Sequence record: OR352947.1
Length of the DNA stretch: 64,000 nucleotides
Origin: Escherichia phage AV117
Direction: 5' to 3' (one strand)
Part shown: positions 8,828 through 36,689 of the stretch, in pieces
How positions within the stretch are numbered: the stretch's first letter is position 1
How the letters are laid out: each line of letters opens with the position of its first letter
The notes under the pieces: model-generated
Seen by the model: the letters and a program-made list of their open reading frames with translations, nothing else
Databases searched by the model: none
What the model was told of the DNA's origin: nothing
Position numbers and translations under genes: made by a program

Positions 8828-9928
8828 TTACGCTGCGAAGATTTTATCCCACATCGCAACAACTGCATCTCGATTATACTTCTTCCATACTGCTTCAGCA
8901 CGTTTAACTCGAGCTTCGTATGTGTCAGTGAATTCTAATACAGCTTTTGTGTAAAGCGCAACTACTTCTTTCTTAGGAGTAGAGGAATCAATTTCTACAC
9001 GCACAGTATCTGGGTCGTATTCGAATGTCGCATGAGGATAATCCTTAAAAACTAACTGGATTACAGGGACACCTTTAGAGATAGCTTCAATAGAACTATT
9101 CTCTACTGTACCCGTGTCAGGACACGTATTAATAAGTGCTTTAGCTGTTTTAAGACGTTCCATGATTTCACTGTGTGGAGCATCAATAATAACAGGATAT
9201 TTAGCTGGTGGTGCCCATTTGCTTGGACAGTATCCTGCGCCATTTTCGCCTAGTGCTTTAATCGCTTCAAGAGCAACATCAGTACGACGCATTTTAGTGT
9301 CATAACGTTGTGCACTAATAATCAGATCAGTCGCCGGAAGAACTTCAGGTTTCTCATTCAAACAAATAACCGGATAATCTTCGGCTTCAAACAACGGATT
9401 TGCTCGCCAATAATCATAATCAATTTTGTCAGTCAGACCTGAAGTCATATAACAATATTTGCGTTCAAATTCACGGAAGGCTTTAGTAGGAGCATAACTC
9501 TTACCACCATTCTTATGAATTTGAATAGTCTGGTCCCAAATTTGAACAATGCCACGAGATACCGGTTCAAATGGTGTTGCCATAAAATTCTTATGAACTT
9601 TAGAGAGACCTGCGTCTTTAATTGCCTGAACGGTTAGTTTAGTCGGTTCCATAGTAACAACAAAATCGTATTCATGGATGCCGGCTAGTTCAACAATCTT
9701 ACGAGCCATAGTATAACTCATACCTAGACTGAATTTAGTCAGATGACCAACAGGATGGTGTGTAACTTTCCAGTCACCAAACGTGTCATTGTCAAAGCCG
9801 ATATAATCAATATCAGCACCGATGGACACAAGATATTTCAACACATTTAAATGTACTGCTTCAAGACCACCTTGTACACGGTCAGGATTAAATGGGACTG
9901 CACGAGATGGGATAAACATAACTTTCAT
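8828..9928 (-). CDS. putative GT-B fold glycosyltransferase, candidate hmC-DNA glycosyl(arabinosyl)transferase
   Basis: 366 aa; C-terminal TGTVENSSIEAISKGVPVI resembles the E-x7-E donor-binding motif of GT-B enzymes; lies between rIIA.1 and gene 39 where T4 has gene 60; no T4 agt/bgt homolog seen in the window. Confidence 0.5.
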   Translation of the reverse strand: MKVMFIPSRAVPFNPDRVQGGLEAVHLNVLKYLVSIGADIDYIGFDNDTFGDWKVTHHPVGHLTKFSLGMSYTMARKIVELAGIHEYDFVVTMEPTKLTVQAIKDAGLSKVHKNFMATPFEPVSRGIVQIWDQTIQIHKNGGKSYAPTKAFREFERKYCYMTSGLTDKIDYDYWRANPLFEAEDYPVICLNEKPEVLPATDLIISAQRYDTKMRRTDVALEAIKALGENGAGYCPSKWAPPAKYPVIIDAPHSEIMERLKTAKALINTCPDTGTVENSSIEAISKGVPVIQLVFKDYPHATFEYDPDTVRVEIDSSTPKKEVVALYTKAVLEFTDTYEARVKRAEAVWKKYNRDAVVAMWDKIFAA

Positions 9929-28569: not shown

Positions 28570-28932
28570 TTAAAAGAATTTAAATTTTTTCTTGGTCCGT
28601 TCATTAAAAGCTTGTTGTACTTGCATTGTAACACATTTTTCAACATGCGGTGCAAGTTCTGCTTTTCTGTCCTGGTCAAGAACTGCAAAGTCCATTACGA
28701 TTTTACCATCAACCCAGTCTAGTTTTGTAATATAGACTATATGATGAGAACCATCTTCAAGTGTAATCAGAATCTCTTGAATGACATTTTCCATTGCTGA
28801 ACGGATAATTTTAAGAGATTCATTAAACACTCGTTCTTTGCGAATGTCTTCCCCTTCCGAAGAAGGGGATTCATCAACGATTTCTAGATTTAAATCATCG
28901 AGATTATTCATCGAAATCTTCCATTTCGTCAA
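28570..28932 (-). CDS. 40: gp40-like protein (head vertex assembly chaperone position)
   Basis: 120 aa between 41 and uvsX as in T4; sequence identity not verified. Confidence 0.5.
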   Translation of the reverse strand: MTKWKISMNNLDDLNLEIVDESPSSEGEDIRKERVFNESLKIIRSAMENVIQEILITLEDGSHHIVYITKLDWVDGKIVMDFAVLDQDRKAELAPHVEKCVTMQVQQAFNERTKKKFKFF

Positions 28933-30076
28933 GGTCGTTTTCTATATCTGCTGCAGACGGAGCATCAGAAGTTTTAACCGGAACTTTAGTTGTGGCTTTG
29001 CAATTAATAAGGTCATTAACAGCGTCATCAACTTCTTTAATAGAAGAGATAGCACCTAGTTTATATTTAGTTTCAATTGCATCTCGGAAAGGTTTGTGTT
29101 TAAACAAAGGTCCCCAGAATTCTACACAATCAGTAGCTTTAGCACGCCATGATTTTTCTTCACGAATCATTTCGCCAGTTTCTTCGTCAAGGAATTCACG
29201 AGCATACCAACCAGCTTTAGGCTTAACTACAAAACCAATTTCAGTTGCCATTTCTAACAAGCCACTGAATGGGTCGATACCACCATCAAAATTAACAGTG
29301 ATTGGGAAAGTAGATTTTTCTTTAACGGTGCGAGATTTTTCTGCTTTCAACGTGAAGTCATAACCGGTCAATTCTGTACCTTCTTTAACCTGACGTTTAG
29401 AGATAAAAAATACCGTGTTGGCAGAATAAAGAATACCTGTACCACCACCCATAATCTCTTTAGGATACAATCCGCCGATTTCCATTGCTGTATGGTTGAT
29501 TGCAACACATGGAATATCTTTAATAGTCAGATAAGGAGTCACAATGCGGAACAGAGATTTAAGTGCCTTAGCACGAGACATATCACCTACAACTTTCTCG
29601 TTCAATGCATCTTCAGTTTCTTTCTTAGATGCAGTATTACCGATTGAATCGATAAAGATAATAACTTTATCACCGCGTTCAATCGCGTCAAGCTGATTAG
29701 TCATATCAACTTTAAGTTGTTCGACAGATTGAATCGGAGTATGAACTACACGGTCTAAATCAACACCCATTGAACGAAAATAAGATTCTGAAGCACCAAA
29801 TTCCGAATCATAGAACAAACAAATTGCATCTTTATATTTCTTCATATATGCTGCAACCATGGTCAGCCCAAACAACGTTTTAAAGTGTTTAGAAGGAGCA
29901 GCAAAAATAGTTAAGCCTGATTGCAACCCGGCATTCAGTGCACCACCTAATGCAATATTCAACATCGGAATACGAGTAGGGACTTCATCGCGATTATTAA
30001 ACAACTTAGACTTAGTCAAGTCTGCAGTCATTTTAGAAGTAGAAGCTTTAATCAGACGAGATTTTAAATCAGACAT
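28904..30076 (-). CDS. uvsX: UvsX recombinase (RecA/Rad51-like)
   Basis: 390 aa; RecA core, Walker-type motifs; length as T4 UvsX. Confidence 0.95.
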   Translation of the reverse strand: MSDLKSRLIKASTSKMTADLTKSKLFNNRDEVPTRIPMLNIALGGALNAGLQSGLTIFAAPSKHFKTLFGLTMVAAYMKKYKDAICLFYDSEFGASESYFRSMGVDLDRVVHTPIQSVEQLKVDMTNQLDAIERGDKVIIFIDSIGNTASKKETEDALNEKVVGDMSRAKALKSLFRIVTPYLTIKDIPCVAINHTAMEIGGLYPKEIMGGGTGILYSANTVFFISKRQVKEGTELTGYDFTLKAEKSRTVKEKSTFPITVNFDGGIDPFSGLLEMATEIGFVVKPKAGWYAREFLDEETGEMIREEKSWRAKATDCVEFWGPLFKHKPFRDAIETKYKLGAISSIKEVDDAVNDLINCKATTKVPVKTSDAPSAADIENDLDEMEDFDE

Positions 30077-30175: not shown

Positions 30176-30724
30176 TTAACGAGCCCATTTGATAATTTCT
30201 GTAATCAAATTATTACGTTCGCTTGCATTAAATCCTATAACTTTGTTAGCACCATCATGATTAAGTAATTGATACGTTTGGATTTTGTTATGAATTGCAA
30301 ACTCTTCAAAATATGAAATGACTGTATTAAAACCGAATGAAGACAAAGTAATAAGGTCGTCTTCAAAACTTTCAGTCATTTCGTTACGTGTTAAAATAAT
30401 TGTGAACACATCATGGTTTTGGCAAAGACGAACATAATCCTGTTCATAAACGTCAAGAACCGAGTCCACATCTTGTCGAATACGTCCATAAACCCAGTTA
30501 CTAATATATCCACGGTCTAACAGATAAATCTTAGTAGGGTCTAAATAATTCAACATCGTTTCGAAACAGCCAACTTCATTTCGAGACTTAACATCGAAAC
30601 GTCCATCAACTGTTCGTTTAGGGAAATCAATCTTTACATATCTTTCACTAATTTCCATTATGTCATTAATGAAAGTTGTTTTACCAGCATTATCCGGGCC
30701 ATCTACTAAAATAATTTTAGCCAT
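30176..30724 (-). CDS. thymidylate-kinase-like P-loop nucleotide kinase
   Basis: 182 aa; P-loop ILVDGPDNAGKTT (compare Tmk GxEGxGKTT) and LLDRGY (Tmk DRY-like motif). Confidence 0.55.
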   Translation of the reverse strand: MAKIILVDGPDNAGKTTFINDIMEISERYVKIDFPKRTVDGRFDVKSRNEVGCFETMLNYLDPTKIYLLDRGYISNWVYGRIRQDVDSVLDVYEQDYVRLCQNHDVFTIILTRNEMTESFEDDLITLSSFGFNTVISYFEEFAIHNKIQTYQLLNHDGANKVIGFNASERNNLITEIIKWAR

Positions 30725-30725
30725 T

Positions 30726-31625
30726 TTATTCCTCGATTACGACATCTTCATATTTAGGTATATTATACGGCGAAGAAATTAAAGCATTAAAGTAGATGAA
30801 CTCGCCAAGACCTGGATGGAATACTTCTTCAGGATTTTCGAAGTATTGAATCTTCGGACGTCCTTTAAGAATTTGATAGTACTCAGTTTTAGTTGGTTTA
30901 AAAATTCGAATCAGCGCTTCTTCAGGATACTTATTTCTGTCGAAGCTATTATTTGGATCGGTTATATAAAGCGGTTGACCTAATTGAATTGCACATTCAA
31001 CCACTTGTTCAAAACGATAGCACGGGTCACTAATTCGAAATGGATGAAAAATACCATCTAGATGAATAGGAGCCAAATCACCTACAAGACGCTGCATGAT
31101 GGAAGGACGTATAACTTTCTGCGTTACGATAATCTTATTACCATCTGCACCTGCGTTAACCAGCACTTCTTTTTGACGTTCATTCAACACAGTAGTTTGA
31201 AGTGAACGATTAACAGACAACATGTCGGTTTTTAAGAATTCGTCAATATAAAAACGTGGTTTATTAGGGTCTGCAGTGATATTGAAATTGAATTCTACGT
31301 CAAAAGTGCCGTCATATCCAGTGATATCTGTGATTAGAAAATCACAATCATAATAATCAATTAATGAATCAACCACAAATTCATTTTCAGACCAGAAATA
31401 TTTACGAGTGTTATATGCGTTATCTTTATACCATAATGGAACAAACTTAAATTCTGGGAAAAGTCGTTCACATTCTTTAATATCAGATGCATTACGTGGA
31501 TATGTAATCACATCACCCGGATTAGCACGGTGCAAATGAAGTTGGAAGTTGCCATCCTTAAGGATAGCATACTGTCCAGTTTCATAAGACCGCATACTCA
31601 AGATAGGTACGCGGAAAATAGCCAT
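30726..31625 (-). CDS. hypothetical enzyme (299 aa) in the T4 beta-gt map position
   Basis: no recognisable motif; 1-nt gap to downstream kinase and shared stop/start with the hydroxymethylase. Confidence 0.5.
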   Translation of the reverse strand: MAIFRVPILSMRSYETGQYAILKDGNFQLHLHRANPGDVITYPRNASDIKECERLFPEFKFVPLWYKDNAYNTRKYFWSENEFVVDSLIDYYDCDFLITDITGYDGTFDVEFNFNITADPNKPRFYIDEFLKTDMLSVNRSLQTTVLNERQKEVLVNAGADGNKIIVTQKVIRPSIMQRLVGDLAPIHLDGIFHPFRISDPCYRFEQVVECAIQLGQPLYITDPNNSFDRNKYPEEALIRIFKPTKTEYYQILKGRPKIQYFENPEEVFHPGLGEFIYFNALISSPYNIPKYEDVVIEE

Positions 31626-32341
31626 TAGTCAAGGAATCCTTTAACATAATCAAAATCACGTTCAAACACATGGGCACTTACCATGGTATGAGTATAATCA
31701 CCAACTTCTACACCACATTCTTTAGCGATATAATGAAGTAATTTTCCTTGGAGATAAAAATCCAACTGCATAACAACAGCACAGTTCTGAGAACGCATAT
31801 GGCAGTGGGTATAAAGCTTACCATCACGAATATAATAAGTCACTGAGTCAGTACATGGATATTCAAGTGTTTCGTCCGAATCAAGCAAAGCCTGATCTGA
31901 ACTTTCAAGAATTTGAAACACAACTCTTCGAGAGTTAGGTTTTTCTTTAAGTTCTTTTAGAAGAGTTGGTAACTGGGCCGCAATGCGAGGACCGTAGAAA
32001 GTGTTGAAGTTTGCAGGCAAAGCATCTGATTTCGGTTTAGAAATAAATTTAGCGACGTTAGGATATGCCTTAAATGCTTCTTCTGCATCAGTACCACCAG
32101 AAATCATAAATTTCCAGAAATCTTCAGCATATTCATAAGAGATGCGATTAATACGTGGGTCGGTCATTTTGAATGATGAAGGGGTATCAACAACTACTGT
32201 CATAGACCCAATTTCATTACAACGTCCAATACGAGAATCAGTAACGAACTGTGGATTTTCTAAAATTTCACGATTGACAGCTTTAAATGCGGATTGAAAA
32301 TCTTCGGCTTTAATATATTTCATTGTGTTATGTTTTCCCAT
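31625..32341 (-). CDS. 42: deoxycytidylate 5-hydroxymethyltransferase (gp42-type, thymidylate-synthase fold)
   Basis: 238 aa; PNSRRVVFQIL, YPCTDSVTYYIRDGKL (catalytic Cys), MRSQNCAVVMQLDF align by eye with the T4 gp42 blocks I recall; an Asp appears at the base-specificity position. Confidence 0.78.
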   Translation of the reverse strand: MGKHNTMKYIKAEDFQSAFKAVNREILENPQFVTDSRIGRCNEIGSMTVVVDTPSSFKMTDPRINRISYEYAEDFWKFMISGGTDAEEAFKAYPNVAKFISKPKSDALPANFNTFYGPRIAAQLPTLLKELKEKPNSRRVVFQILESSDQALLDSDETLEYPCTDSVTYYIRDGKLYTHCHMRSQNCAVVMQLDFYLQGKLLHYIAKECGVEVGDYTHTMVSAHVFERDFDYVKGFLD

Positions 32342-32390: not shown

Positions 32391-32478
32391 ATTTCTTAGC
32401 GATGTTGATATAACGTAGAGCTTCGGCTTAGTATTCCAATTGAACAGGTCCTTTAATCACTTTAGCCGCTTTAGTTTC

Positions 32479-32502
32479 AAAAAGGCCCTTATGGGCCTTT
32501 TT
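32479..32502 (-). terminator. strong symmetric hairpin terminator after the 386-aa gene
   Basis: aaaaaggccc-ttat-gggccttttt: 10-bp stem flanked by A5/T5, could terminate in either direction. Confidence 0.55.
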
Positions 32503-32579
32503 AAGAATTTGTTCGTTGCTGTTAATTTTAATAGTCAAAATCTCTTCGTTAAGTTGGTGGTTAAAAGTTTTTCTAGAAA

Positions 32580-33740
32580 TCATTCTGGGTACCTCAAAGC
32601 GTCATCAGAGTTAGTTATATCAATAATAGATATAGAGTTTTCTGATAACCCATTTTTAGATAACTGACGTTTATAATATCTTTCACAATATGTACACGTC
32701 GTCCCACAGATTTCATTAGCACAATCGAAATCTGGATGTTTGAACCACCTTTTTTCTAAAAAGCCGTCTAACAAAGAGGTTTCAATATTTACCGTATGTG
32801 AAAACTCAGTCTCATTTTCAAGAGTGAAAATGGTCTCTAAAGGCTTCCACAATTCCAACAAATTACCTTCAAATTTTTCAGAAGCATAAGCTTCAAGAAC
32901 TTTCAAAATGTAGTCTGTGCTACCTGTACGTCCTGAAACTTTGAATTGAGTGATACCAATATCATTATAAAGTTTCAAATCTTGAGGACGAACAAAACGA
33001 GTTCTCAACCAGTTAAATGGGTCTGTATCACGAGCTTTAATACAGTGTTGCATTGGATATCCATTTAAGGATTTGGCATCATCTACTGTAACGTCAGTGC
33101 TATGGAAAATATAGCAAGAGTCACGATAGCTACAATGTGTTGTATACCCTTTACCAGCATTAGAACAGAACTCATTTACAAGAACTTCAAATATTATATT
33201 GTTCTTATTACAAAACTCTGCTGCACGTTTCAGGAAAGAAACTGAACGGTTCTTATGAATTCCACAGCAGACCTTTTTGATATTATATTGGTCATGCAAG
33301 TATTTGATTTGAGTTACAGCATCGACATGTAGAATTGTTGAAACTTCAATCTCAATGTCTTTATTGACTTCACGAACAATTTCCATAACAACAGGGTTAG
33401 CGATAGTAATACGCCATACGCCTATTGACCAAAGATACTGAACATAATCCTGAATAGCTTTCTTCTTCCACTCAACTAGTTCTCTTTTTGAACCAGGATT
33501 TATCGTGTTGAGTGTATAGTTAAAGCAAATACCTAATTCGTTACAACGTTTAACGTAATCTTCTAACATCTTTTTGTCAACGTCAGGAAGCCTAAAATCA
33601 GGTCTGGCTGCTACAAAAGCCATTTCTCTTGTAGAGCCGTATACTTCGTTTATCAAGCTATTAGGATAAGTTTTATTGAGCTCTACGATTTTATCAAGAA
33701 GAGCTAAATCAAAATTCGTTCCGATTTTAAAAGTATTCAT
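32580..33740 (-). CDS. hypothetical Cys-rich enzyme (386 aa)
   Basis: C-terminal cluster CANEICGTTCTYCERYY (contains C-x3-C-x2-C) plus internal VCCG and CS..AGKGYTTHCSYRDSC; possible metal/Fe-S site; function unknown. Confidence 0.5.
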   Translation of the reverse strand: MNTFKIGTNFDLALLDKIVELNKTYPNSLINEVYGSTREMAFVAARPDFRLPDVDKKMLEDYVKRCNELGICFNYTLNTINPGSKRELVEWKKKAIQDYVQYLWSIGVWRITIANPVVMEIVREVNKDIEIEVSTILHVDAVTQIKYLHDQYNIKKVCCGIHKNRSVSFLKRAAEFCNKNNIIFEVLVNEFCSNAGKGYTTHCSYRDSCYIFHSTDVTVDDAKSLNGYPMQHCIKARDTDPFNWLRTRFVRPQDLKLYNDIGITQFKVSGRTGSTDYILKVLEAYASEKFEGNLLELWKPLETIFTLENETEFSHTVNIETSLLDGFLEKRWFKHPDFDCANEICGTTCTYCERYYKRQLSKNGLSENSISIIDITNSDDALRYPE

Positions 33741-33800: not shown

Positions 33801-34202
33801 TTATAGATTCGGTTTATATGATTTAAATGTTTCGAATTCGCCTTTATTCATAAGAGCTTTGAATTCGTCAGGACGCATAGCTTTGTCGTCGATAATCCAA
33901 TCATATACTGGTTTATGTGTTAGCAAATTATGGTACTTCAATCCAATGTTTGCCAAGTTCTGAATCAGACTTGGGAGAATGTCAATTGCTATACGACCAG
34001 GACCGACTGACTTCATACCGCGAGCAGTGTAAAGCGTTATGGTATGCCCTGCATCATACAGGGCATTAATGGCAGACACCATTTCGACGTCTGGTTTGAA
34101 GTTCACGTAATCACGATTGTTATTCCACTCTGTTATACAATCATCGACATCAAAACAAAGATTAAGCATGTTTTCTACACGGTGCATTAGATTCGTTCCC
34201 AT
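33801..34202 (-). CDS. HAD-superfamily phosphatase, small cap-less (KdsC/GmhB-like) form
   Basis: 133 aa; motif I FDVDDCIT (DxDx[TV]), LYTAR, K, DWIIDD; overlaps the upstream gene by 16 nt. Confidence 0.6.
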   Translation of the reverse strand: MGTNLMHRVENMLNLCFDVDDCITEWNNNRDYVNFKPDVEMVSAINALYDAGHTITLYTARGMKSVGPGRIAIDILPSLIQNLANIGLKYHNLLTHKPVYDWIIDDKAMRPDEFKALMNKGEFETFKSYKPNL

Positions 34203-35872
34203 TGATGAGTGATATCGCCACCGATTGGACGATAAGAAACACCGGTTTCTTTATCAGTTAGTACCCATTTACCAGGATTTTTTGTAATCAGAGTAGCCGT
34301 TACAGGTTCTGCTACGTCATAACTAATAGAGCCGTCCTGAAGTACACGGCCCATGTTACGTAATTGCTTAGTCAGAAGTTCCATACCTTTATAATATGCG
34401 GCTACCGCTTTAAGTGGATTATTCTTGAAATAACCACCTAATGCAATCCAGATAATTGCCGCTGCCAAATGATGATACTCGTTAAACGAACTCATCTTTC
34501 CATATTTGTAAACTAATGGATTGATGTTAATAGACACATTACAAGTTGTTTCATCGATAGTAAACTGTCCCCAGGTCGGATTAGCATTGAATTCATCATA
34601 ACCTGAAACAGCGTAAAGCACTTTAGCTTCATCATACAATTTTGGGCCGTAAATCTTGGTTTCGCCAAAATATCCACGAGGGTCGATAAACTTGACTTCG
34701 CCGTTATCAGTAATCATAGTATTACTGAAGTTCGGGTCACCATGAATAACAGAGTACTGTCCCTGAGAACGGTTATGATAACGAATAAGGTGTTCTAAAG
34801 CTTGTTTCAGCATTGGTTTCAGACGCCCAATCTTAGTGTAGTTCACATGTGTGATTTTACCAAATGAATCAATCAATGGTTGAATACTTTCACAACGATC
34901 AATGACTTTAGTATAGAATTCTTTAGTGAAATCACGACGAACAGTTTCAGGACTTACAAAATAAGTGTCTGTGCTGAATTTCAGTGCGTCTAAAATTGCA
35001 TCAACAATTTGTGGACGAGCAAGACTCGATTTGGATTTAATATATTCAAATGCTGGCTTACCTTTAATGCGTTCCATTTCAAAGTTATTTTCATTAACAG
35101 AAACTAACTGAGGAACTGAATCTGATTTCACTTTAAGATACCATGAAATCTCATCTTTCTGAAGAGCTCGACCCTGTTCGGTTAATGCGAATTTAGTTAC
35201 AGTTTCTTCACCAATTTCAACTGCATTAAAACTACGATTAAGTTCACGAACTTCATGAGCTTTTTCAAGTTTAGGCATATCACCTAAATCAATTAGATTC
35301 ATAAGCTCTGATTTATTGAATGCGCTGCCGTAAAGGAATTCTACGAAATCGCGTCCTTTGCAGTATTCATGAATTTCCTCATCAGTAGAACCCATATAGA
35401 ATTCCCAGTCTTTGAACTGATAAATTCCTACAACATTACCACCTGTTGAACCTACGTTAGTGATATTTTCACCGTCGAAATTATATCGACATTCGTCACC
35501 CTTAACATAGATTGCGTTAACATTCCAAGACCATGAACCAAAATCAGGAATAATATCACACCAGTTAACAATTACATTATGGCCGTCTAAATCTTTGTGC
35601 AATTTAGCAAGAGCATAAGCAGAACCATACGCTTCATCAACTGTACGAATAGTCACATTGAACCCTTCTTGCTCACAATAAGCTCGAACAGTTTCAGCAA
35701 ATTTTGAATGAACTACTACAATAATTTCATCTGCGCCAAGGTCAGAATAAATTGTATACAAATTGCTCAGAATAGTGTCTTGTTTATAATTAACAAGCAC
35801 CTTAGGAATATGATGCGTTATTGGATACAAACGAGTTGCCAGTCCAGCACCAAGAATAACAGCTTTTTTCAT
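34187..35872 (-). CDS. bifunctional sugar-1-phosphate nucleotidyltransferase (N-terminal) / APH-like anomeric sugar kinase (C-terminal)
   Basis: 561 aa; N-terminal AVILGAGLATRLYPIT..IPK (RmlA/GlmU-type GxGTRL motif); C-terminal VIHGDPNFSNTMI and FIDPRG (HxDxxxxN catalytic loop and IDxxG of aminoglycoside/choline-kinase fold). Confidence 0.7.
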   Translation of the reverse strand: MKKAVILGAGLATRLYPITHHIPKVLVNYKQDTILSNLYTIYSDLGADEIIVVVHSKFAETVRAYCEQEGFNVTIRTVDEAYGSAYALAKLHKDLDGHNVIVNWCDIIPDFGSWSWNVNAIYVKGDECRYNFDGENITNVGSTGGNVVGIYQFKDWEFYMGSTDEEIHEYCKGRDFVEFLYGSAFNKSELMNLIDLGDMPKLEKAHEVRELNRSFNAVEIGEETVTKFALTEQGRALQKDEISWYLKVKSDSVPQLVSVNENNFEMERIKGKPAFEYIKSKSSLARPQIVDAILDALKFSTDTYFVSPETVRRDFTKEFYTKVIDRCESIQPLIDSFGKITHVNYTKIGRLKPMLKQALEHLIRYHNRSQGQYSVIHGDPNFSNTMITDNGEVKFIDPRGYFGETKIYGPKLYDEAKVLYAVSGYDEFNANPTWGQFTIDETTCNVSININPLVYKYGKMSSFNEYHHLAAAIIWIALGGYFKNNPLKAVAAYYKGMELLTKQLRNMGRVLQDGSISYDVAEPVTATLITKNPGKWVLTDKETGVSYRPIGGDITHQWERI

Positions 35873-35913: not shown

Positions 35914-36057
35914 CTAGTTAAAGCATTCATACTTTGCTTGTAGTCCAATCATAATCCATCCGATTATAAGAGTCGGAACCATTACTGGAGCCGTTAAGCT
36001 CCAGTAGATAGTCATGACAAGCATCAATAGTAAAAGTCCTATTGTTATTGCTTTCAT
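35914..36057 (-). CDS. small membrane protein (about 47 aa), translationally coupled to the isomerase gene
   Basis: MKAITIGLLLLMLVMTIYWSL...; ATG overlaps the SIS gene stop (ATGA); GAGG RBS; approximate. Confidence 0.35.
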   Translation of the reverse strand: MKAITIGLLLLMLVMTIYWSLTAPVMVPTLIIGWIMIGLQAKYECFN

Positions 36058-36689
36058 TGTTCGCCTCGTAACATGGCACCTAGTGCACCGCCAGGGTGGA
36101 ACTTAAGGAAGTCATTAGAGGTAAATCCACGCTCAGACGAAAGGTTGATAGCAAACGTATCGATAAGCGCTAACAACAATGTAGTGGACATAGTCGGAGC
36201 CAGAGAATTCTCATCAACCTCTACTGCGATGCCTGTACAGAAAGAGTAATCAAAAAGGGCTTCATTTTCTTGTGGAATGTCTGGGTTACAATGCAACAGA
36301 ATCTGTTTGACGTTAGGACGAATCATTTTAAGATGCTTAGCCACGCCTATCATTTCTTCAGTTTTACCAGAACGACTAATATGAATCAACACATCATTAG
36401 GCGCAATGAATCCTGCATCACCGTGAGAATAATGCCCAGTGTTCAAGTACATACTCGGGATACCGAGTGAAGCAAATGTCTCAGAAGCTTTAGTTGCAAT
36501 ATTAGCATTCTTACCAACACCCGTAATAATTACTCGGCTTTCATAATTACTAAGTCCAGGGCGTCGAAGAGTTTCTAGAATAGCATTATAACGAGCAGGG
36601 TTTTGACTAATTACTTTGGCCATAGCGGCCAAAGAAGAAGCTTGTTTTATGATTGCGTCAATAGCGATAGTAATAGGAGTAGTTTTCAT
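36054..36689 (-). CDS. arabinose-5-phosphate isomerase-like SIS-domain protein (KpsF/GutQ-type, no CBS domains)
   Basis: 211 aa; FASLGIPSMYLNTGHYSHGDAGFI, ISRSGKTEEM, LAPTMSTTLLLALIDTFAI and RGFTSNDFLKFHPGGALG align block-for-block with the KpsF motifs I recall. Confidence 0.78.
   Translation of the reverse strand: MKTTPITIAIDAIIKQASSLAAMAKVISQNPARYNAILETLRRPGLSNYESRVIITGVGKNANIATKASETFASLGIPSMYLNTGHYSHGDAGFIAPNDVLIHISRSGKTEEMIGVAKHLKMIRPNVKQILLHCNPDIPQENEALFDYSFCTGIAVEVDENSLAPTMSTTLLLALIDTFAINLSSERGFTSNDFLKFHPGGALGAMLRGEQ

Follow-up and report, generated by a model that had tools for sequence, protein, structure and literature searches.

The DNA of coliphage RB69 was first reported to contain arabinosyl-hydroxymethylcytosine, and ORF003c was proposed as the transferase (Thomas et al. 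2018, PMC6024577). This view was revised in 2025-2026: the sugar is joined straight to C5 of the cytosine via oxygen, with no methylene bridge (PMC13326640; PMC13390438), and RB69 DNA carries both alpha-D-arabinofuranosyl-O-5-dC (alpha-D-Araf-O-5-dC) and beta-D-Araf-(1,3)-alpha-D-Araf-O-5-dC (PMC13326640). The DNA of Shewanella phage Thanatos has been reported to be mono-pentosylated, with a single transferase (PMC13326640). One RB69 protein, gp46:47, was named putative "arabinosyltransferase 1" by Lee et al. (NAR 2026, PMC13326640). In this study we examined a stretch of 64,000 nucleotides from Escherichia phage AV117 (OR352947.1; hereafter the window, meaning the whole stretch of DNA analysed) and focused on a 299-amino-acid open reading frame (ORF) at positions 30726..31625 on the minus strand. 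We consider it probable, at roughly 0.7, that its product is the base-proximal glycosyltransferase of the pathway by which Mosigvirus phages hypermodify their DNA with arabinosyl-5-hydroxycytosine.

The window belongs to a Mosigvirus (RB69-like) genome, the 8 kb surrounding the ORF being 97.5-98.5% identical to Mosigvirus coliphages. The ORF is a real gene, since tblastn detects it in 348 phage records, with coverage of at least 80% in 340, and it matches PHROG 3891 over residues 1-298 (E = 4e-156). A protein of phage HX01 is 100% identical to it, homologues in Acinetobacter phages are 46% identical, and homologues of the same length reach down to about 45% identity. In the RB69 record NC_004928 the gene is split into ORF046c and ORF047c (L001, 3098-3998), and the cause is one extra T in RB69, which reads GTAGTGTGATT against GTAGGTGATT in the window. 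Once the extra T is taken out a single ORF results, in which 296 of 300 aligned positions, including the stop codon, equal those of the window (four amino acid differences in 299). Lee et al. also attribute the split to faulty sequencing and take gp46:47 to be a single protein (PMC13326640); BFVD and UniProt still list the two halves of the RB69 gene separately. RB69 gp46:47 and DLP3 gp79 represent the same gene, with neighbours and fold hits (6kih, 3c4q) that agree with ours, and nothing of substance separates the window protein from gp46:47 except that the window copy is intact and the RB69 record is split. The 299-amino-acid gene is thus the already published putative arabinosyltransferase 1; its function as given here is the published prediction, and the assignment itself is known and adds no new biology.

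The gene order in T4 is 42, beta-gt, segA and uvsX, and that in the window is a thymidylate synthase (TS) homologue, the 299-amino-acid ORF, a kinase gene and uvsX (28904..30076, downstream of the kinase gene). The first-pass annotation of this DNA, made from the sequence by a model, had placed the ORF in the slot of the T4 beta-glucosyltransferase (beta-gt). This holds in so far as the ORF lies directly downstream of the gene 42 homologue, as beta-gt does, but it is separated from uvsX by the kinase gene. The length of the ORF, the one-nucleotide gap to the next gene and the start/stop junction shared with the upstream gene are all present as annotated. The ORF opens with an ATG that shares one nucleotide with the TAA stop codon of the TS homologue (TAATG, the upstream gene ending in GAC TAA), and an AAGGA lies 11 nt 5' of this start. 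After its own stop codon, TAA (30726-30728), comes a single base and next the ATG of the kinase gene, whose Shine-Dalgarno sequence, GAGGAA, sits inside the last codons of the 299-amino-acid ORF. Translational coupling links the genes for the TS homologue, the transferase and the kinase in this DNA.

The upstream gene (31625..32341, minus strand, 238 amino acids, the orthologue of RB69 gp48), a flavin-dependent TS homologue, had been taken for a hydroxymethylase and is instead a 5-hydroxy-dCMP (5hodCMP) synthase. Its product matches PDB 9IQC/9IR2 by phmmer with E = 8e-161 and five differences in 238 amino acids (98% identity), and 9IQU likewise at 98%. At the positions corresponding to L143, C146, D169 and N177 of E. 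coli ThyA it has E, C, N and D, where T4 gp42 has D, C, D and D and ThyA itself L, C, D and N. The change D169N is the diagnostic signature of 5hodCMP synthases according to Lee et al., and RB69 gp48 has been found experimentally to make 5hodCMP (PMC13326640). It is because of the 98% identity to 9IQC and the D169N signature that we regard this enzyme as a hydroxylase, and with such a neighbour the acceptor of the transferase is expected to be 5-hydroxycytosine (5hoC) and not hydroxymethylcytosine (hmC).

These observations bear directly on the idea that the 299-amino-acid protein is a diverged analogue of T4 beta-gt, glucosylating hmC in DNA. Its position relative to the gene 42 homologue and uvsX is as in T4, and it is predicted to have a GT-B fold, as does T4 beta-gt (CAZy GT63), which also acts on a C5-substituted cytosine. 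However, its neighbour makes 5-hydroxy-dCMP, and DNA of the RB69 type contains arabinosyl-5-hydroxycytosine without a methylene bridge, so that a hmC-glucosyltransferase is contradicted both by the activity of the neighbour and by the chemistry of RB69/NP DNA. The chemistry of RB69 DNA likewise points to 5hoC as acceptor, where the first-pass annotation had hmC in view, and to D-arabinofuranose and not glucose as the sugar. Although it shares the slot, T4 beta-gt is neither a sequence relative of the 299-amino-acid protein (BLASTP E = 3.8, in line with the lack of similarity noted at first pass) nor its closest relative in structure. T4 alpha-gt (CAZy GT72) is only 12% identical to it and has 400 amino acids against 299, with hmC as acceptor and UDP-glucose as donor. 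A hmC-glucosylating analogue of beta-gt is hardly credible.

An AlphaFold2 model of the 299-amino-acid protein was built from an alignment of 46 sequences and gave a predicted local distance difference test score (pLDDT) of 95.1 and a predicted template modelling score (pTM) of 0.89. It consists of two domains of alternating strands and helices (Rossmann-like) with a cleft between them, and its best match in Foldseek is MshA (3c4q), in independent agreement with the published hits (6kih, 3c4q). As modelled, the protein is a compact glycosyltransferase of GT-B fold, with a minimal pair of Rossmann domains. The fold prediction that the first-pass annotation had proposed as a check thus yielded a transferase fold, and its suggestion of a candidate sugar transferase is borne out by this fold together with the surrounding cluster of DNA-modification genes and the beta-gt slot. 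The GT4-type GT-B enzymes sucrose-phosphate synthase (6kih), BshA (6n1x), MshA (3c4q) and PimA (2gej) are 8-12% identical to the protein, which is 60-100 residues shorter than the bacterial retaining enzymes of this type and is predicted to differ from them in having a nucleobase hydroxyl as its acceptor. No match to the Glycos_transf_1 or Glyco_trans_4 models was found, and the position of the usual EX7E-type motif is occupied by an invariant H270-P271-G272. Judged by the model, the protein is therefore GT4-like in fold only and not a member of GT4.

The invariant residues of the family gather in the regions that hold donor and acceptor in GT-B enzymes. They comprise S10-M11-R12-S13, which follows strand 1 of the protein, K23-D24-G25-N26, R74, Y126 and D128, then P195-F196-R197 and D200, which follow strand 1 of the C-terminal domain, and T222-N225, K246 and H270-P271-G272. 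Residues R197 and D200 (in PFRISD), T222-N225 (TDPN), K246 and H270-P271-G272 are the likely donor-binding residues, assigned from their position in the fold only.

Comparison of phage genomes extends the association between transferase and hydroxylase well beyond the Mosigvirus phages. Among 56 IMG/VR loci with a homologue of the 299-amino-acid protein, 46 have a TS homologue directly upstream and 33 have a kinase gene directly downstream, and the N169/D177 signature of 5hodCMP synthases is present in 50 of the 52 TS homologues nearby. In Thanatos, TH1_063 (L003, MT457552, 25460-26362) is 48% identical to the 299-amino-acid protein over its full length, and the order of TS homologue, transferase and kinase is as in the window, the kinase TH1_064 being 44% identical to its counterpart there (30176..30724). 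Gene order of this kind shows the trio to persist in distantly related phages. A more remote relative occurs in Rhizobium phage P10VF, whose protein is 88% identical to RL38J1_215, annotated 'galactosyltransferase 1' (Pootjesviridae), and aligns to the profile of the 299-amino-acid family with an hhalign probability of 99.0 (E = 4.5e-18). This homologue is longer (343 amino acids) and only about 25% identical to the 299-amino-acid protein, but shares with the family the motifs SMRSYETG-Y, DGN, P[FY]R[IL][ST]D and TDPNNS, and it adjoins a D169N TS homologue and a kinase gene just as the window gene does. In RL38J1 DNA the first sugar on 5hoC is galactose and not arabinose. Since the family is common to arabinose-first and galactose-first phages, its conserved job would be to supply the hydroxylated base with its first sugar, the identity of which varies by lineage.

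The window encodes a second GT-B glycosyltransferase of 366 amino acids (8828..9928, minus strand), which is 99.2% identical to RB69 ORF003c (gp3) and matches PDB 9IQZ/9IR0, 'phage HY126 glycosyltransferase', with a phmmer E-value of 6.5e-250. The two transferases have no detectable sequence similarity (BLASTP E = 3.1), and a common origin cannot be detected by sequence. It might be argued that their roles are reversed, the 366-amino-acid enzyme setting the first arabinose and the 299-amino-acid protein acting on a second sugar or as an accessory. ORF003c is the arabinosyltransferase proposed by Thomas et al. 2018 (PMC6024577), records of BASEL phages label the 366-amino-acid transferase 'putative hmC-arabinosyltransferase', and the HY126 structure of this type was solved with UDP bound (9IQZ/9IR0). 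The distribution of the two families nevertheless makes such a reversal improbable. The 299-amino-acid family (348 records) spans phages of Escherichia, Acinetobacter, Klebsiella, Shigella, Serratia, Enterobacter, Proteus and Yersinia. The second transferase, a distinct family of narrower distribution, was matched by tblastn in 211 records, confined to Escherichia/Shigella phages, to Acinetobacter phages, which have two copies each, and to one Tegunavirus record; no Shewanella record was among the matches. Phages of Klebsiella, Serratia, Enterobacter, Proteus, Yersinia and Shewanella, in which the 366-amino-acid family was not found (tblastn E <= 1e-5), do carry the 299-amino-acid family and a 5hodCMP synthase, and both synteny with the hydroxylase and sharing with galactose-first Rhizobium phages are seen for the 299-amino-acid family only. 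A further point set against a reversal is the reported viability of phage Bas46 after deletion of its Aat arabinosyltransferase (PMC13216743), a deletion that may concern either gene. Because the 299-amino-acid family is the more widespread and is syntenic with the hydroxylase, we place the 299-amino-acid protein first and propose the 366-amino-acid protein as the extender. Of the two options left by the first-pass annotation, a first transferase or one adding a further sugar, the distribution favours the base-proximal one, and the second-sugar option is judged less likely.

The genes assigned to the supply of the donor lie no more than 5 kb upstream of the 299-amino-acid ORF and on the same strand. 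Orthologues of some of them have been described for phage HY126, the subject of a 2026 paper by He et al. (Nat Chem Biol). An SIS-domain arabinose-5-phosphate isomerase of 211 amino acids (36054..36689, minus strand; RB69 gp55 orthologue; PF01380 SIS E = 1e-10, KpsF/GutQ E = 2e-32, KdsD E = 7e-31) is predicted from its domain matches to be the entry to the pathway from ribulose-5-phosphate. A 561-amino-acid protein (34187..35872, minus strand; RB69 gp52:53 and HY126 AfhE orthologue) combines an N-terminal sugar-1-phosphate nucleotidyltransferase (PF00483 NTP_transferase E = 8e-10, residues 3-99) with a C-terminal sugar kinase (weak APH/fructosamine-kinase matches at 350-400), and AfhE is reported, in the account given in PMC13326640, to have UDP-arabinose pyrophosphorylase activity. 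A HAD-type sugar phosphatase of 133 amino acids (33801..34202, minus strand; RB69 gp51 and HY126 AfhF orthologue) matches phrog_1238 (E = 5e-43) and the capsule-biosynthesis phosphatase model TIGR01689 (E = 4e-13); AfhF is said to turn Araf-1,5-bisphosphate into Araf-1-phosphate (He et al., as cited in PMC13326640). Together the three genes match the UDP-arabinofuranose branch described for HY126 (as cited in PMC13326640), and UDP-arabinofuranose from the 561-amino-acid protein is the presumed donor.

The presence of a dedicated activating enzyme is important in view of a different function claimed for TH1_063. The purified Thanatos protein made UDP-xylose from UTP and xylose-1-phosphate, as followed by liquid chromatography-mass spectrometry (PMC12838424), and by extension the 299-amino-acid protein could be a UDP-pentose pyrophosphorylase that activates the sugar. 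Against this, a real NTP-transferase domain is already found in the 561-amino-acid protein, and in Thanatos in TH1_060, while the 299-amino-acid protein has no match to PF00483 or PF12804 and the structures nearest to it are those of GT-B enzymes. In the Thanatos assay the sugar was a non-native one and the only control was a reaction without enzyme (PMC12838424), and it is conceivable that a host uridylyltransferase was co-purified. A pyrophosphorylase activity is unlikely to be the native role of TH1_063, and we would give this function a very small chance in the window protein.

With the base-proximal transferase as the preferred function, the following sequence of steps can be proposed. 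The adjacent TS homologue would convert dCMP to 5-hydroxy-dCMP, as shown for the RB69 and HY126 orthologues, and kinases would carry it to the triphosphate (the gp1-type dNMP kinase has been shown to convert 5hodCMP to 5hodCDP), which would be polymerised instead of dCTP. The SIS isomerase, the bifunctional kinase/uridylyltransferase and the HAD phosphatase would produce UDP-D-arabinofuranose, as reported for HY126 (cited in PMC13326640). The 299-amino-acid enzyme would bind UDP-Araf in its C-terminal domain and move the Araf to the 5-OH oxygen of 5hoC, forming an alpha-D-Araf-O-C5 ether, and the 366-amino-acid transferase would then put a second, beta-1,3-linked Araf on part of the sites. By analogy with T4 and with the chain extenders that act on DNA, the most likely acceptor is 5hoC already in DNA.

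Several observations weigh against this assignment. Individual DLP3 transferases given UDP-Araf or UDP-Arap and 5hoC-DNA brought about no arabinosylation (PMC13326640; data not shown there), and the Thanatos orthologue supplied with UDP-xylose left plasmid DNA, dCMP, dCTP and cytosine unmodified, none of these substrates being 5-hydroxylated (PMC12838424). Among these transferases, demonstrated activity is limited to gp76 and gp77, the chain extenders of DLP3, which act on DNA (PMC13326640), and the literature covered, which excludes He et al. 2026 and Mahler et al. 2025, documents no catalysis by the 299-amino-acid protein or its orthologues. Its family also lacks a sequence link to any CAZy-type family: Pfam and NCBIfam (at E <= 0.1 or 0.01) and the PDB (phmmer and family profile) returned no match, and with the family profile no more than 228 clusters (E <= 1e-3) were recovered from 1.84 billion representatives. 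Judged by these searches the family is small and sequence-closed.

The fold raises two further difficulties. Fold matches of both the 299-amino-acid protein and the second transferase (8828..9928) are retaining enzymes, while the two linkages in RB69 DNA are opposite in anomeric configuration, alpha then beta (PMC13326640). The resemblance of both enzymes to retaining folds, taken with these opposite linkages, means that fold cannot predict the stereochemistry of both, and if both draw on the same UDP-Araf donor, at least one of them, the 299- or the 366-amino-acid protein, must invert and so depart from its fold neighbours. The second difficulty is that UDP-GlcNAc 2-epimerases share the fold and also score well in Foldseek, which leaves room for a GT-B-fold modifier of nucleotide sugars, UDP-GlcNAc 2-epimerase-like for example. 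Such a role would leave phages with no other glycosyltransferase, such as Thanatos, without a base-proximal transferase, and the sugar configuration is already fixed by the arabinose-5-phosphate isomerase; we think it very unlikely.

A more substantial question is the level at which the sugar is added. Before replication, the transferase could arabinosylate a free nucleotide (5hodCMP or 5hodCDP), the adjacent kinase processing the arabinosylated nucleotide and the polymerase incorporating it. The kinase in question (30176..30724, minus strand, 182 amino acids; RB69 gp45 orthologue) is a P-loop, thymidylate-kinase-like protein (phrog_761, E = 7e-45). It is additional to the T4-gp1-type dNMP kinase that the phage carries. 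Coupling of the TS, transferase and kinase genes in the window and retention of the trio across distant phages would suit transfer to a nucleotide, and the RB69 gp1-type kinase already phosphorylates 5hodCMP (PMC13326640), so that no substrate is assigned to the additional kinase, although the latter may simply be the 5hodCMP kinase in lineages that possibly lack a gp1-type kinase. The failure to obtain activity in vitro on 5hoC-DNA points in the same direction, and Lee et al. leave the substrate level undecided (PMC13326640). The protein is also acidic (isoelectric point (pI) 5.06; family median near 5.0). Net charge was weighed as an indicator of DNA binding, T4 beta-gt having a pI of 9.05, and was dropped since T4 alpha-gt, a proven DNA enzyme, has a pI of 6.1, so that acidity is not diagnostic.

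Gene fusions deserve particular attention here. The transferase is naturally fused to a thymidylate-kinase (TMPK)-like kinase in P0232, P0236, P0242 and P0249, and in the reverse order in P0233, as might be expected if the two acted in succession on a nucleotide. It is, however, also fused to a KdsC-like HAD domain (DFDG, TGDS, GDDxYD) in P0138, P0149-P0151, P0168 and P0172. The HAD fusion joins a non-consecutive step, and we have accordingly downgraded the kinase fusions as proof of consecutive steps at the nucleotide level. Within the limits of gene architecture, the kinase and HAD fusions confirm that the transferase domain is a member of the pathway, and the fused proteins are possible tools for enzymology. 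Fusion loci were also noted at L065 (6001-7725) and L051 (5452-7107). Characterised phage DNA sugar transferases are all post-replicative, the DLP3 chain extenders work on DNA (PMC13326640), and T4 beta-gt also adjoins gene 42 yet modifies DNA. Gene coupling, the conserved trio, the fusions, the extra kinase and the negative DNA assays are thus consistent with a nucleotide acceptor, none of them being decisive, and we regard transfer before replication as unlikely, though deserving serious consideration. If true, this would make it the first known case in which a sugar hypermodification of phage DNA is put on before replication.

Analysis of the transferase loci also drew attention to a Peptidase_U32-family protein of 386 amino acids (32580..33740, minus strand; RB69 gp50 orthologue; PF01136 E = 6e-11, phrog_5757 E = 2e-266, with a weak match to UbiU), which Lee et al. 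list only as a 'sugar or heterocycle reductase' (PMC13326640). A D169N TS homologue and a U32 gene occur together in 16 of the 56 IMG/VR loci, the TS homologue only in 34, the U32 gene only in four and neither in two. Both of the latter are truncated contigs of about 4 kb, and every full-length locus has a D169N TS homologue, a U32 gene or both. In IMG/VR loci L050, L053, L054 and L056 and in contig L065 the transferase stands beside a U32 gene, with no TS-like ORF detected within about 6 kb (hmmsearch --max, E <= 10), and in L060 the only TS homologue carries the ordinary D169/N177 signature of ThyA. Across 21 homologues the phage U32 proteins have invariant cysteines at C192, C203, C209 and C233 and at C340, C345, C349 and C352, and the U32 members RlhA, TrhP and UbiU/V act as C5 or ring hydroxylases that need no O2 (PMC5727448, PMC6599085, PMC10990095). 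The loci without a TS homologue, the eight invariant cysteines and the anaerobic hydroxylase relatives together suggest that the U32 protein may be an O2-independent, alternative cytosine C5 hydroxylase of the pathway. We found no publication linking the phage U32 gene to cytosine hydroxylation.

Between the U32 and TS-homologue genes lies a small ORF of 51 amino acids (32428..32583, minus strand), identified by DNA alignment with RB69 as a homologue of gp49. RB69 gp49 has 79 amino acids, and the window homologue is cut to 51 by a 39-nt deletion. The small ORF contains a hairpin with a 10-bp stem, AAAAAGGCCC-ATAA-GGGCCTTTTT. RB69 keeps the stem core GGCCC/GGGCC of this hairpin but has a different loop and differs in some of the A/T stem next to the core. 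The hairpin is a possible terminator or RNA-processing site between the U32 and TS-homologue genes. A scan for sigma-70 promoters and terminators over 28.8-36.9 kb gave counts no higher than expected from shuffled sequence.

Arabinosyl-5-hydroxycytosine lets RB69-like phages evade restriction enzymes, type I CRISPR-Cas and the glycosylase Brig1 (PMC13216743; PMC13326640), and many candidates for phage therapy are RB69-like phages. The 299-amino-acid ORF is the predicted maker of the unusual ether bond between nucleobase, oxygen and sugar in this DNA. Our comparative results sharpen the published prediction by showing the putative arabinosyltransferase 1 to belong to a small and apparently closed family, tied to a candidate C5 hydroxylase.

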